Assembly: GCA_964016885.1 (NCBI GenBank)
Contig: OZ024745.1
Coordinates: 67,456,001-67,520,000, forward strand
Source of the DNA: Eledone cirrhosa
Taxonomy: Eukaryota
DNA: 64,000 nt
Direction: 5' to 3'
The position numbers and the translations under genes are program-made. The notes under the pieces are model-generated. The model was not told the DNA's origin and made no database searches. It saw only the letters and a program-made list of their open reading frames with translations. This document shows, one piece after another, positions 31,101-64,000 of the stretch. Position 1 is the first letter of the stretch, and each line of letters begins with the position of its first letter.

Positions 31101-34100
31101 CTCAACTACATAGATTGATAATACAGAAAAAAATATGAAATAAGCAACAAAAATAGAAAGTCGTCTGTTAGACTAAAAGATCTGTAAGAAATACACAAAT
31201 ATTTTCCACATCAATGTCTAATACAGTTGAAATTACTTACCATATGTGGTAGGCATTGTAGTAAATGGTGTAGACAGACTAGGTGGCATGGTTGTAGAGA
31301 CACTGGGTGGAACTGTTGTAGAGACACTGGGTTGAACTGTTGTAGTGACACTGGGTGGCACTGTTGTTGAGACACTGGGTGGCGCAGTGGTTGAGACACT
31401 GGGTGGCACTGTTGTAGAGACACTGGGTGGTACTGTTGTTGAGACACTGGGTGGCGCTGTTGTGGAGACACTGGGTGGCGCAGTGGTGGAGACACTGGGT
31501 GGCACTGTTGTAGAAACACTGGGTGGTACTGTTGTTGAGACACTGGATGGCGCTGTTGTGGAGACACTGGGTGGCGCAGTGGTTGAGACACTGGGTGGCG
31601 CTGTTATGGAGACACTGGGTGGCGCAGTGGTTGAGACACTGGGTGGCGCTGTTGTGAAGACACTGGGTGGCACTGTTGTGGAGACACTGGGTGGTACTGT
31701 TGTAGAGACACTGGGTGGTACTGTTGTAGAGACACTGGGTGGCACTGTTGTAGAGACACTGGGTGGCACTGTTGTAGAGACACTGGGTGGCACTGTTGTG
31801 GAGACACTGGGTGGTACTGTTGTTGATATGTTAGTAGGGATCAATGTAGAAACAACTGATGTTGAAACATAGGTTAAAAGAGACATCAAAATATTCTATA
31901 ACATTTTCCATTAACATTACTCAACTACATAATAACATACAAAAGTAGAAACTATTATATATATATTGTAAATAACAATCTACTATTACATCTGTCATTT
32001 ATACATTAAAAGGGAACACAAGAATATTTTGTAATGATCTATTATCAGTATCACAATTACTAACGTATTACAATTCAATGTGTATTTTAATAATATAATT
32101 TTATTTCAAAACAATATTTGGTAGTACTGTTTCACCTGGTGATGTTTTCTTTCTCAACACTTAAATTTGATATGATGGCTAAATATAATCAACAAAATTA
32201 TTCTGCCAATATATGTTAATTTAAAAATACCTGGAATTAATGGCAAAATATTTTTAGTCTGTCGTCTTTTGAGACATTTGTAGGAGCTGTGCCACTTAGA
32301 ACAATATTCTTTCCATGGTTAGTGGCTCACGTTACTGTATAATAGGTCACTGTCGAGTGCTACTGGTAGCGTGTAACCCAGTACAACCTGTCGCATGGTT
32401 GAGTCATTGGCGACTAAACTGGCAACCTCACCAAGTTTACTTGGTGAGGAGGGGGATTTTGGACACCCTTCAGGACAAAAAACAAAACATGACAAAGGGC
32501 AGAAGAACTCATAAGAGTCAACGGCCATCTGAAAAAGAATTAAAAATCCTGCCAAATCAATGGGTGGCAGAAGTTCCAGCTACATGCATTGAAAGGCTGG
32601 TGTAGTGGTTCTGAGAAAAATGCGGCTTTACAGATAATCAATGAAAACTGACAATGGAAAGGCGCTCCGGCTCATGTTATAAGAAAATTATTGACCTTCA
32701 AGAGAATCAGCAACACCTGATTGTATTCAGCAACCAAAACAAATATGAAGTACACCAAATCCAATGCTCCTAGGGGTAGCCCTGGTTCTTCTATATTTGC
32801 GAGTGTAAACTCGGCCAGATGAGATAGATTAGATTGCAAGGGAGCTTTGTTATTGCAACACCATAGCCATAATATCAAACATAGTAATACTTAGAGTGTG
32901 TTGGTTTGATTTAAACATAACTATCAGGAGTATATGGTGGCACTTGTGTAGTTATGTATACATATCTGCTCAAAATTCATCAATGTTTATCAGAAATAAA
33001 ATAATATAGGCAAAACTACAATTTAATGAGGTAGATTTACTCGATGGGCAACAAACAACATCCAATTGATTTGCCATGAATATTATGAAATACATACTTA
33101 CTTGTTGGTTTCATACATATTTTTAAAGAAACAGACACTATCATAGGGTCTGTTGCAACTTCAGGTATAATGGTAAGTTTAATCTTTGTCTTTCCACTGT
33201 TTGGTTTAATTGTAAATGTCTCTGTAGGTTGCAATTTGGTGGGAACAACTTCTTTTGGTTTCACAGTTGTTTTAGATACAGTTTCCCATAAAGTTGTTTC
33301 CACATATCTAGTTTCCTCTATTAAAGGCTAGAAAAATATTTCAAATGGACATGTAGTAGAATATAAACTTATAAAACAATATGTAATACATATCAAACAC
33401 TACAAACATTGAGAAAATATATCACACTCACCTTTACTTTTCCTATCAGATCTACTTGATAACTTTTCACATTTGTTTGTGTAACAAGAGAAACTTCTCC
33501 ACCAGAATTAAGGTCATCACCAACCTCTATATAAATAATCCTATTTTCTGGGGTATTTGTTACCCACCCATTTCCATTAGGTCTAATATCACTTGGATTT
33601 CCACCAGGAATCATATTGATTGAACTATTCGGTATTACACTTTCATCATCCATTCCAACAGTATTTTCACACATAGCTGCAAAGAAAAGGAAAATTACAG
33701 CATCACAGGATTTTATAGCAAAAAATTGTTTGACAATTATTCATTAGTTAGTAAATACTTTTCAGAAAATCTTTGTAAATGTTTCATCAGCAATCTTTCA
33801 ATACCTAAGATTATATTCAATTCAATCATATAGAGTTAGTTCTTTAAAATATTACAAACAAATACATAATAAATACGCAAGCAAGGACATGGCTATGTGA
33901 TTTAAAACTGAATTAGTTGAAGCTATCTTAAGTAAGTGGTTAGGAAGTTCACATTGCTATACCAAGATCACACAAACAATTCTAACATATGTTATCTAAA
34001 AATATAGACTATTGACATAGTACTGGGATGACACCATTTTGTATGGAATTGTGTGAAACTGAAGCTGTGTAGAGGATTGTCAGCTGGTGTGTAGTTCAGA

Positions 34101-37100
34101 TTTCTAACTTTGTCACATATTCTGTCAGGTTGAGTTACCTTCAGAGTTATATTAATGGCAGTCTACACAATGGAATACTCAGCTACTTCCTGGTCAATTT
34201 ACTGTAGAGGTAACTATGGTGATAAATAGATATATAGCCATCATGTAAAGCATCAAAGTCTCTATAATCATATTTCACATACATACAATGATAATAGAGT
34301 GAAATTTGGCTACACAAGTTATTTAGAAAAGTATTTGGCTGAATAGTAAGTGAGATTTTTACACCTCTTTCATATTTCTATCTACTAAACATCAAACTAC
34401 TTACATGGTGTTGTAGCTAGAGTAGTAATTGTTGTTGATAGACTGGGTAGCACTGTAGTGGATACACTGGGTGGAACTGTTGTGGAGACACTGGGTGGCA
34501 CTGTTGTTGATAAGTTTGTTGGAATCAATGTTGAGACACTTGTGGTTGATAAGTAAGCTACAAATATCATTAGAATAAATAAGTTACATTATTACCTCAA
34601 TTACAAATATATTTCAAATTATAATGTATTGTAATGGCTTAAACTTGAAATTAACCAATTGATACCAAAGTATATGATGCTGGCCTTGGTTGTATGATAC
34701 AAATATGTTTGTTTTCAAATATTTATATTGATCAAAAGATCCTTCCAAACCAAAGCGAAGCGATGGGATACATAGTTATGTTATTAAATAAATCAAACTT
34801 CTTGATATCTTTTGAAATTATTTTAACAACGTCAGTGACTTTCATTAGAAACATGGTAATGGAATGGTTTACAGCAACTTTATATATTGCTATATGATAA
34901 TCTTTAAAACAATACTTTAATAAATATATTCTTCATAGTTGATATCATAAAATTGTTAATATAAATTATTTGGTAACATCATGAACTGGTATATACATAA
35001 TATCAAACAATTCATCATTACTCAAACCACAAAACATTTCTTAGTACATCCCCGCTAATCAGTGAGAGCATGGGAGATAGACATTAAACGATGATGATGA
35101 TTCAAGTTCTAACACATGGGTTTATTGTCTTAATATTATTGATGCTATAGCTATTTCATCAACATCACTCAGCCTTTCACGACTTGTGAACTTGTAGTGG
35201 TGCCATTATAGTATATGATGTTTCTTGGGTTCATCTAACCATCCAGAGACAAGGGATAGGGTGAAAGTGTGAAACATGGCAAAGGAGAAGATTATATAAC
35301 ACTGGTACTCGATATTACTTCATATATTGTCCCCATAACGATGACAAAGTTGATTTCAGCAACACTTCAACTCAAAGCACTGACAACCACAGCAAATACG
35401 ACAAAGTATTCTATCTGAAGGCTTCATGTGGCCATAGAGAAATATTTTCAAGCAATATTCTATCAATTATATTCACTATTGAAATCATCAATGTCACACT
35501 TACTTGTTGGTTTCACACATATCTTTACAGAAACAGACACTATCATAAATTCTGTTGCAAACTCAGGCACAATGGTCAGTATAATCTTTGTCTTTCCACT
35601 GTTTGGTTTAATTGCAAATGTCTCTGTAGGTTGCAATTTGGTTGGAACAACTTCTTTTGGTTTCACAGTTTTTTTAGATACAGTTTCCCATAAAGCATTT
35701 GTTTCCACATATCTAGTTTCCTCTATTAAAGGCTAGAAAAATATTTCAAATATACATGTAGTAGAATATAAACTTATAAAACAATATGTAATACATATCA
35801 AACACTACAAACATTGAGAAAATATATCACACTCACCTTTACTTTTCCTATCAGATCTACTTGATAACTTTTCACATTTGTTTGTGTAACTAGAGAAACT
35901 TCTCCACCAGAATTAAGGTCATCTCCAACGTCTATATAAATAATCCTATTTTCTGGTGTATTTGTTGACCAACCAACTCCACCAGGTCGAATATCTCTTG
36001 GATTACCAACAGGAATCAATCTAATTGAACTAGCTGGTATTATACTATCTACAGCCATACCATCAATATTTTCACACGCAACTGCAAAGAAACATCACCA
36101 TGTATCATTACAACGTATGCACTACAAATTCACTGTAATATTATAAACTACAAAATATATTTATTAGTAAGGAAGATTATTCAAAATATAAAAGTGAACA
36201 AGTTACAACAAACTATACATAATTTTAGGCAGGTGATAAGCTTCAGTAAATGCAGAAACCTGTATCAAATTTTGATCATGTTGCACTTTTTCAATAAAAT
36301 TATTAACATACATTAACATACATTCACACATTCTCAATCACGACACACACATTATATTAATAATAGGAGATCAAGATATCTTTTCTTCTGTAATTATATA
36401 TCCCAAATTGTCTAAATGTACTATGTATATCTATTTAGAAAGTCATATCAAAGATATTTGTGAAGAGAATAAAATCCATAATGCAGTAATTTTGAAATTA
36501 AGTATCCAATTAAATATGATATTAAAAAATCAATTAAGTAAATTATAACTGACATACAGACAATCCTCATATATATGGAGGGGTGTTGAATTTGTGATTT
36601 AAAAAAAAATCCTTTTTATAGAACCGGAAGAAGTTTTACAGAACACTAAGGCTAAATATTAATTTGGAAATATATTTGATTTCTTACAAAAAGTTGCCAA
36701 CGGAATGAGAGAAAGTGTATGGTAGTTTGTTGAATAGAATTTTGTAGAAATTCAAAGATACTGCCTTGCTGTATATTTGCTATGCTGATTCTGCCAGGTA
36801 AATAGTTAACAGTAATCCTGTCTGTGGAATCCTCATCCAATCATCATCATTTTACGTCCGCTTTTCCCTGCTTGCAAGGGTGGGACGGGAACTGATTCTG
36901 GCTTGATTTCTACAGCTGGATGCCCTTCCTAACACCAACCTCATTTTCAGTGAGTGCTGGGTGCTTTATTTTTTTCCGTGACACCTCCATGACCACTTTG
37001 CAGTGGAATGATAGGGACCCCAGTCTTATCATCTCATTTCTACAGCTGAGTAAACTGGAGCAATGTGAAATAAAGTGTCTTGCTCAAGTAAACAACACAT

Positions 37101-63442: not shown

Positions 63443-64000
63443 CTACAAATATCATTAGAATAAATAAGTTACATTATTACCTCAATTACAAATATATTTC
63501 AAATTATAATGTATTGTAATGGCTTAAACTTGAAATTAACCAATTGATACCAAAGTATATGATGCTGGCCTTGGTTGTATGATACAAATATGTTTGTTTT
63601 CAAATATTTATATTGATCAAAAGATCCTTCCAAACCAAAGCGAAGCGATGGGATACATAGTTATGTTATTAAATAAATCAAACTTCTTGATATCTTTTGA
63701 AATTATTTTAACAACGTCAGTGACTTTCATTAGAAACATGGTAATGGAATGGTTTACAGCAACTTTATATATTGCTATATGATAATCTTTAAAACAATAC
63801 TTTAATAAATATATTCTTCATAGTTGATATCATAAAATTGTTAATATAAATTATTTGGTAACATCATGAACTGGTATATACATAATATCAAACAATTCAT
63901 CATTACTCAAACCACAAAACATTTCTTAGTACATCCCCGCTAATCAGTGAGAGCATGGGAGATAGACATTAAACGATGATGATGATTCAAGTTCTAACAC

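Follow-up and report, generated by a model that had tools for sequence, protein, structure and literature searches.

A 5,777-bp higher-order repeat of exons, introns and retroelement fragments within a probable mucin/SCO-spondin-like gene of the octopod Eledone cirrhosa

We analyzed a stretch of 64,000 nucleotides from the octopod Eledone cirrhosa (assembly GCA_964016885.1, contig OZ024745.1, positions 67,456,001 to 67,520,000 of the forward strand; hereafter the window, numbered from its first base), the second half of which is taken up by a tandem array of 5,777-bp units that lies on the minus strand at 33180-64000 and runs on past the window. In a self-comparison the commonest offsets between shared 20-mers are 5777 and its multiples, and the period spans 33180 to the window end. 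Identity at lag 5777 is 99.80% over 33180-58223 (51 mismatches in 25,044 comparisons); it drops to 27.7% when the lag is 5776 or 5778, and positions 1-27300 give a control value of 26.4%. The array comprises 5.33 units, namely unit 1 (33180-38956), unit 2 (38957-44733), unit 3 (44734-50510), unit 4 (50511-56287), unit 5 (56288-62064) and a partial unit 6 (62065-64000) that is cut by the window end; its start at 33180 immediately follows the last of the boundary-diagnostic sites (33179), and a single gap-free block aligns unit 1 with unit 5.

Each unit carries six minus-strand exons of 153, 245, 226, 177, 245 and 229 nt, which sum to exactly 1,275 nt or 425 codons and form two diverged modules, alpha and beta, of unequal length (about 2.4 and 3.4 kb). 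Every module consists of a Pro/Thr/Ser (PTS) linker exon, C, and the two exons, A and B, of a putative discoidin-like domain, with A encoding the N-terminal and B the C-terminal half. In alpha, exon C lies at 34405-34557 (153 nt, 66% Ser/Thr/Pro, with a 24-bp internal repeat), exon A at 33432-33676 (245 nt, six identical copies at 5,777-bp intervals) and exon B at 33102-33327 (226 nt); in beta the equivalent exons are at 37784-37960 (177 nt, 71% Ser/Thr/Pro), 35837-36081 (245 nt, five identical copies) and 35504-35732 (229 nt). Each of the 33 exons in the array is open and bounded by AG/GT, and the phases are compatible (C 1-1, A 1-0 and B 0-1). As the module is symmetric with phase 1-1, gain or loss of whole modules preserves the reading frame. 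The alpha and beta sub-modules align over about 1.85 kb at 90.8% identity and are otherwise unalignable, whereas whole units are only 1-34 differences per 5,777 bp apart, the relationship that defines a higher-order repeat. A preliminary description of the window had claimed both an exact 5777 period over more than five units and a dimer of six exons encoding 425 residues, and the self-comparison, unit alignment and exon lengths bear out the two claims.

Downstream of the array on the minus strand stands a terminal single-copy module, gamma (30075-31855), with its long PTS exon at 31241-31855, exon A at 30405-30649 and exon B at 30075-30300, and a six-frame profile scan of positions 1-33100 (682 frames) found no modules beyond it. 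The introns after exon B-gamma and after the terminal exon B-alpha share homology remnants at 76-89% identity (29335-29818 against 29953-30038, 32235-32337 and 32834-33029), which mark an older module duplication at the 3' end of the array.

An alignment of the five full units varies in 40 columns, with 24 transitions, 16 transversions and no indels. Units 1-3 differ among themselves at 1-3 bases per 5,777 bp, unit 4 differs from them at 19-21, and unit 5 differs at 32-34 from units 1-3 and at 23 from unit 4. Neighboring units are the most alike, and at least three distinct full unit types (units 1-3, unit 4 and unit 5) are present in addition to a distinct partial unit 6. The segment 33349-51208 (17.9 kb) is periodic with just one single-nucleotide variant, at 43044. 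Nine of the 40 variants are exonic, and exons make up 22% of the length, so that exons and introns with their retroelements are equally homogenized; seven of the exonic variants are non-synonymous and two synonymous, and all of them lie outside the 11 A exons of the array. This homogenization of non-coding as well as coding DNA, together with the chimeric exon and the conversion tract described below, is what a concerted array displays.

The two modules have diverged very unevenly along their length. Exon A differs by 13.5%, with about 30 differences (∼21%) in its first 135 nt, the intron between A and B by 1.0%, exon B by 2.2%, the intron between B and C by 6.3% and exon C by 5.9%; divergence reaches 9.5% in the 158 nt that open the next intron, after which the C-to-A introns become unalignable. 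Over codons 1-44 of exon A, synonymous divergence (dS) comes to about 0.3 whichever two of alpha, beta and gamma are compared, which indicates that the modules are old, and the mosaic as a whole requires conversion plus an intermediate duplication or a long conversion. Exon B-alpha also records a crossover. Its terminal copy is non-chimeric and alone keeps the original alpha 3' end of the exon, whereas the copies in units 2-6 follow beta at 12 diagnostic sites toward the 3' end (equivalents of 33095-33179) and alpha at four sites toward the 5' end (33213-33347), which places the crossover at 33180-33212 (minus strand), a 33-bp interval that is identical in alpha and beta. The pattern of unit 2 is also seen in unit 5, and three sites depart from it, of which one is private to beta, another to unit 1 and the third to units 2-6. 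The chimeric exon implies that the dimer arose by homologous in-frame crossover between an alpha and a beta B exon lying two modules out of register, a geometry that predicts a beta-type module at the upstream end of the array, beyond the window.

Signs of later exchange are found within the array. Of the 14 sites that units 4 and 5 have in common, eight cluster in a stretch of 100 bp, as happened in 0 of 20,000 random placements, and over a 161-bp tract (35407-35567, unstranded) the beta module of units 1-3 is identical to its alpha-side paralogue (p 3e-5 at the 6.3% background). Units 4 and 5 differ from the tract at seven of the eight clustered sites (35470-35558), three of which carry outgroup states and four private ones, and the simplest reading is gene conversion in the ancestor of units 1-3. 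Sites that group units 4 and 5 (34326, 34378 and 38123) conflict with paralogue matches found in unit 5 only (34253, 34266, 37728 and 38628), a conflict that calls for exchange or recurrent mutation. We rejected the criterion of a minority allele matching the paralogue as a sign of conversion, given that retained ancestral states look alike and that the flipped sites of unit 5 are non-contiguous; among the variants between units, we claim conversion for 35407-35567 alone.

The introns of the unit carry retroelement fragments that are repeated along with the exons. A short interspersed nuclear element (SINE) with a tRNA-like head (36829-37168, minus strand) is restricted to the beta C-to-A intron and is 92% identical to free copies at 4424, 9441 and 24318, from which it differs at 15-19 of about 310 sites, the free copies differing among themselves at 9-12. 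Its head gave the sole Rfam match, to the tRNA family, which at 27.3 bits (E 0.017) falls short of the gathering score of 29, and ARAGORN predicted no tRNA gene. A second, non-coding fragment of tail type (37331-37615, plus strand) is likewise beta-specific and ends beside the alpha/beta homology boundary at 37626; it is 78% identical to 15176-15460, which sits just behind a long interspersed nuclear element (LINE) with endonuclease and reverse transcriptase (RT) matches. A retroelement tail remnant of ∼55 bp (38444-38502, plus strand; paralogue at about 35043-35101) is present in both B-to-C introns. The preliminary description had spoken of SINE and RTE fragments copied along in the introns; the SINE, second element and tail remnant are indeed so copied, but no RT-coding sequence in the unit matched the LINE of the window, and the RTE label is provisional.

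The unique 5' flank of the beta SINE (37169-37325, about 155 bp) is common to the copy at 24318-24819 (flank 24658-24819), with six differences in 156 positions. The 3' flanks of these two SINEs are not shared, the two other copies are without the 5' flank, and both SINEs are sense to the gene. The shared flank possibly reflects 5' transduction from the pre-mRNA of the gene itself, a small copy at the DNA level, or a SINE subfamily with a 5' extension. The LINE (12107-15106, plus strand) is degraded, with endonuclease, RT and PHD-finger-like matches and several stops, and lies in the intron downstream of the giant PTS exon described below.

The best relative of exon A is Octopus bimaculoides LOC106867630 (27 matches at E ≤0.001 among 1.84 billion representatives), a protein with a single copy of the domain, in which exon A (62-65% identity), exon B (53-58%) and the small PTS exon downstream of gamma (76%) are joined in the order predicted by our splice model. 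We examined the fold of the domain on this homologue. The model (pLDDT 84, pTM 0.80) resembles discoidin-type sandwiches along its full length and best matches the second discoidin domain of neuropilin-1 (Z 11.7, rmsd 3.2, 129 of 141 residues aligned), and other discoidin, DOC and CBM32 chains match at Z 9-11.6, with HERC2 DOC and IFT25, which belong to the same superfamily, tying within 1 Z unit. Foldseek ranked DDR2, neuropilin b1 and factor VIII C2 at the top, with just one match at E ≤0.001, and matches in the Atlas reached TM 0.70 for neuropilin and 0.68 for F5/8C. Each of the 12 modules, like the aligned full-length homologues, has one cysteine at the start of exon A and another at the end of exon B, candidates for the terminal cysteines that close a discoidin domain. 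The fold comparisons suggest that A and B together encode a degenerate discoidin (F5/8 type C) domain of beta-sandwich fold. Searches with single exons were less informative: a word-index protein search gave no match among 38 candidates, a PDB sequence search gave one chance match, profile matches were to designed repeat proteins alone, and an Atlas search with exon A gave a best value of 0.84, at lead level. Two candidates, P0010, a repetitive chance match, and P0024, were left out of alignment A1, which includes 18 exon-only matches with intron read-through tails that may weaken the C-terminal half of the model.

All B exons of the window have, relative to the O. bimaculoides homologue, about 17 extra residues at their 5' end (33103-33327 in the terminal copy), at a low-confidence loop of the model (residues 79-89), and no in-frame internal acceptor was found that would remove exactly these residues. 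A domain profile found 1-4 copies each in 10 of the 11 database proteins tested, seven of which had contributed to the profile, and some of these also have TIL or VWC domains; P0014, P0015 and P0027-P0031 have it in 2-4 tandem copies, some with TIL/VWC. The discoidin-like domain, which is invisible to Pfam, may thus represent an uncurated family of repeat domains. Among lophotrochozoans, F5_F8 domains are said to typify mucin-like proteins (PMC4948705). From its architecture, each unit would supply two discoidin-like beads and two O-glycosylatable PTS spacers. Discoidin domains bind glycan, phospholipid, collagen or peptide, but having the fold in common does not establish such a function.

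Downstream of gamma, on the minus strand, lie the small PTS exon (26702-26797, 96 nt), which is 76% identical to the residues that follow the domain in LOC106867630, a giant PTS, mucin-type exon (17989-23187, 5,199 nt, phase 1-1), and cysteine-rich exons (1107-7537) that encode TSP1, TSP1, TIL and further parts of TSP1. Identity reaches 89% between the TIL exon and O. bimaculoides XP_014768038.1, called SCO-spondin-like by automatic annotation, and five further stretches are colinear with that protein at 65-88%, the downstream TSP1/TIL exons being its orthologues. To judge from colinearity and compatible phases, the two O. bimaculoides gene models would seem to belong to a single gene in the window. 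The window holds the PTS feature of a gel-forming mucin, in the form of the 5,199-nt exon and the PTS linkers. SCO-spondin combines TSP1 and TIL repeats with LDL-receptor class A repeats; TSP1 and TIL are present here, and the class A repeats would fall upstream of the window. The C-terminal VWC and cystine knot of a gel-forming mucin would likewise fall outside it; the orthologue XP_014768038.1 has a sub-threshold VWC match and, at its end, a cysteine pattern resembling a cystine knot, with no Pfam match at E 0.01. The giant PTS exon has its own hierarchy of repeats, with periods of 21, 42 and 63 bp and longer blocks, which looks older than the array and is itself a candidate for length polymorphism. 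Just downstream of it is a small cysteine-containing open frame (16858-17040) that is probably an exon, with approximate boundaries; it has no convincing Pfam match and is absent from the O. bimaculoides model.

Elsewhere in the window, two copies of one retroelement family form an inverted pair (1-294 and 10015-10308, 98.6% identical over 294 bp), and tandem duplications occur inside retroelements at 26006-26391 (61 bp, 6.3 copies), 15138-15293 (49 bp, 3.2 copies) and 27246-27620 (a 182-bp direct repeat at 96%). A degenerate (GGT)n array at 379-997, of about 207 units and open in several frames, is probably an intronic microsatellite.

Taking these results together, we think it quite probable that the array is a real intragenic higher-order repeat that originated stepwise within a giant secreted mucin/SCO-spondin-like gene. 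The basic module is a PTS linker exon C followed by exons A and B, and old alpha, beta and gamma copies of it have diverged to the present state, in which the C-to-A introns are unalignable. The sole block that stayed similar, from the 3' half of exon A through the intron to exon B, would have kept exchanging sequence, probably by conversion, to leave the mosaic that we observe. The beta intron would at this stage have gained the SINE and the second fragment that it now contains, and the beta B-intron-C block may have been duplicated or converted at about 6% divergence. An alpha B exon would then have crossed over with the beta B exon two modules upstream, within 33180-33212, creating the dimer to which the chimeric exon still testifies. 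Later unequal crossover would have proceeded in the dimer register, carrying introns and retroelements along, because dimers match over 5.8 kb at >99% and monomers just patchily. Each added unit contributes 425 residues and, to judge from the architecture, may lengthen a multivalent glycoprotein of mucus type. The preliminary description had outlined three steps, with an old module duplication followed by retroelement insertion and very recent amplification of the dimer. Old divergence, beta-specific elements in every unit and recent amplification by unequal crossover all stand, but they combine into a mosaic history and not a succession of clean steps, and one retroelement remnant is in both sub-modules. 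Its proposal of concerted evolution agrees with the homogenized introns, the chimeric B exon and the likeness of neighboring units.

In favor of our reading, codons 45-81 of exon A are under purifying selection when set against gamma, with a dN (non-synonymous divergence) of 0.02-0.04 and a dS of 0.21-0.37. A different account of the dimer would give selection a larger part. Against gamma, dN/dS is 0.67-0.9 in codons 1-44 compared with 0.06-0.18 in codons 45-81. Between alpha and beta the residue differences are confined to codons 1-44 (dN 0.25 compared with 0.01), the part of a discoidin domain that holds the ligand-binding loops, and the 11 A exons of the array are without any variant. On this evidence the alpha-beta pair could be a selected functional unit, its two domains binding different ligands and having to alternate, so that the dimer would be maintained by selection and not by recombination register alone. 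Two discoidin-like domains whose N-terminal binding loops have diverged would alternate along a mucus glycoprotein, the retroelement-loaded, unalignable introns would shield the loops from conversion and lock the dimer register, and individuals would vary the number of paired sites at a fixed 1:1 ratio and hence the properties of their mucus. The Fisher contrast between the codon blocks is significant in the beta-gamma pairing (p 0.0025), but not in the other two (p 0.11 and 0.21), with a split at codon 44 that was chosen after inspecting the data, and positive selection on exon A is unsupported, with dN/dS <1. Moreover, the stretch of high divergence lies right beside the intron that cannot be aligned, and a rise is seen also at the other, non-coding end of the homology block; fading of conversion near heterology would produce this, and it explains the alpha/beta pattern without selection. 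We regard the adaptive dimer, both as a selected pair and with its consequences for mucus, as improbable.

Whether the array exists as assembled is a separate matter. One or two real units might have been over-expanded, or two haplotypes concatenated, as the 17.9-kb segment with its lone variant, the 1-3 differences per 5,777 bp among units 1-3 and the allelic size of the differences involving units 4 and 5 (19-34 bp) would allow. Sequencing error does not look like the 40 variant columns, which are free of indels, have 24 transitions to 16 transversions, are common to neighboring units and in several cases restore outgroup or paralogue bases, and the three or more full unit types, the distinct partial unit 6 and a chimeric exon that requires a biological crossover all speak for a real array. 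An artefact made from a single unit is unlikely, and we give artefactual expansion or concatenation as a whole very little credence. More serious is the suggestion, which we hold to be possible though doubtful, that a real array has the wrong copy number of units 1-3, or is a fixed species-level duplication with no polymorphism in length, seeing that a single sequence was available and that near-identity shows recency and not polymorphism. Three units with 1-3 differences would, however, imply an amplification younger than typical allelic divergence, and comparable arrays are polymorphic, the kringle IV type 2 (KIV-2) array of LPA ranging from 1 to >40 copies (PMC4378929). Length polymorphism of the array is likely, as far as one assembled sequence can indicate. 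That the repeat is a pseudogenised or non-coding segmental satellite with exon remnants is hardly credible: non-synonymous variants between units are undepleted and the case is built from DNA, yet 33 of 33 exons are open with canonical splice sites and compatible phases, the older modules carry the mark of purifying selection, and the downstream exons are intact and colinear.

Several points nevertheless weigh against an intragenic repeat in a mucin/SCO-spondin-like gene with the history set out above. All of the evidence comes from one assembled sequence, with the gene read at the DNA level, and the number of the near-identical units 1-3 is assembly-sensitive and could be mis-assembled, since one variant is all that the 17.9-kb segment holds. 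At the youngest level purifying selection leaves no sign (seven non-synonymous to two synonymous variants), and several alleles of unit 5 match the paralogue singly and not in tracts, which a simple history leaves unexplained. Gel-forming mucins are expected to have N-terminal VWD-C8-TIL units; the N terminus of this gene is beyond 64000, so that the window holds its 3' part and the VWD-C8-TIL region lies outside. As regards the domain, Pfam gave no F5/8C match for any of the six A and B exons or for the homologue LOC106867630 (P0001), so that it is discoidin-like in fold and does not belong to PF00754 by sequence. The predicted fold is that of this homologue and not of the spliced A+B domain of the window, and the homologue is 62-65% identical over exon A and 53-58% over exon B, where it is without about 17 residues.

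The array is a new and unusually legible case of a known mode of protein lengthening by unequal recombination. Few genes are on record as containing coding higher-order repeats in which exon-intron types alternate, NBPF and Argiope MaSp2 among them, to which this adds a mollusc; domain repeats are said to evolve in concert only rarely overall (PMC5100051), and no description of this array was found in the literature searched, which left out most subscription papers. Unusually, the array preserves next to one another its founding crossover, narrowed to 33 bp of a chimeric exon, a probable tract of conversion and an outgroup module, and together they can be used to test the switch from monomer to dimer register and whether intron heterology and retroelement insertions set that register. 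The locus further brings to light a giant mucin-like octopus gene, which the O. bimaculoides annotation splits into pieces, with a discoidin-like repeat domain that escapes Pfam. If polymorphic, the array would amount to large-scale structural variation in what is a candidate mucus protein. Reports place SCO-spondin-like proteins in the skin mucus of O. vulgaris (PMC11431876), and a limpet mucus proteome lists them too, in both cases as a class and with no link to this gene.

Among known systems, lophotrochozoan mucin-like, hemolectin and SCO-spondin-like proteins share PTS regions, discoidin-type domains, TSP1, TIL and VWC (PMC4948705), and for O. bimaculoides LOC106867630 and XP_014768038.1 the likeness extends to direct sequence orthology of the flanking exons. 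Unlike the mucin-like proteins as described there, the octopod gene has a domain too diverged for Pfam, in at least 12 copies that alternate with PTS spacers, and no VWD-C8-TIL within the window. Looser parallels are chicken MUC2, in which mucin repeats are spread over several exons with alternating linkers and repeated intronic elements, but where the cassettes are PTS-only with interspersed CysD (PMC3549977), and abalone VERL, a molluscan domain array in concerted evolution with distinct terminal repeats that, unlike ours, is described as having no intervening introns (PMC2704960). The LPA KIV-2 array, to which the preliminary description had likened this one, resembles it in the size of its exon-intron unit (about 5.5 kb), in a domain split over two exons and in signs of conversion, to which the spread of intra-array variants is attributed (PMC4378929). 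The analogy holds for size and possible polymorphism but not for structure: KIV-2 is a monomeric two-exon repeat whose types A, B and C differ by 2-3 synonymous sites and whose polymorphism is measured (PMC4378929), whereas the octopod array is an alternating alpha/beta dimer whose polymorphism we infer.

Closer analogues, by this comparison, are the NBPF triplets and Argiope MaSp2. The NBPF/Olduvai triplet of human chromosome 1 is a 3mer higher-order repeat of about 4.8 kb, with copies about 1-1.6% and monomers about 18% apart (PMC9584774). It too is an intragenic higher-order repeat of exon-intron monomers, each encoding a two-exon domain; the octopod repeat is instead a dimer of three-exon modules, with copies 0.02-0.6% apart and monomers that form a 1-21% mosaic with unalignable introns, and its protein would be secreted, mucin-like and molluscan. 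In Argiope MaSp2.1a and MaSp2.2a two exon/intron types alternate, the pair is the repeated unit and introns are homogenized within the gene, and the authors knew of no other eukaryotic gene with two alternating homogenized intron types (PMC9779670). The octopod array shares this alternation, the repetition of the pair and the homogenized introns. The spider unit, however, has two exons and two small introns and encodes low-complexity silk, whereas that of the octopod has six exons, kilobase introns that bear retroelements, putatively folded domains and a visible founding crossover.

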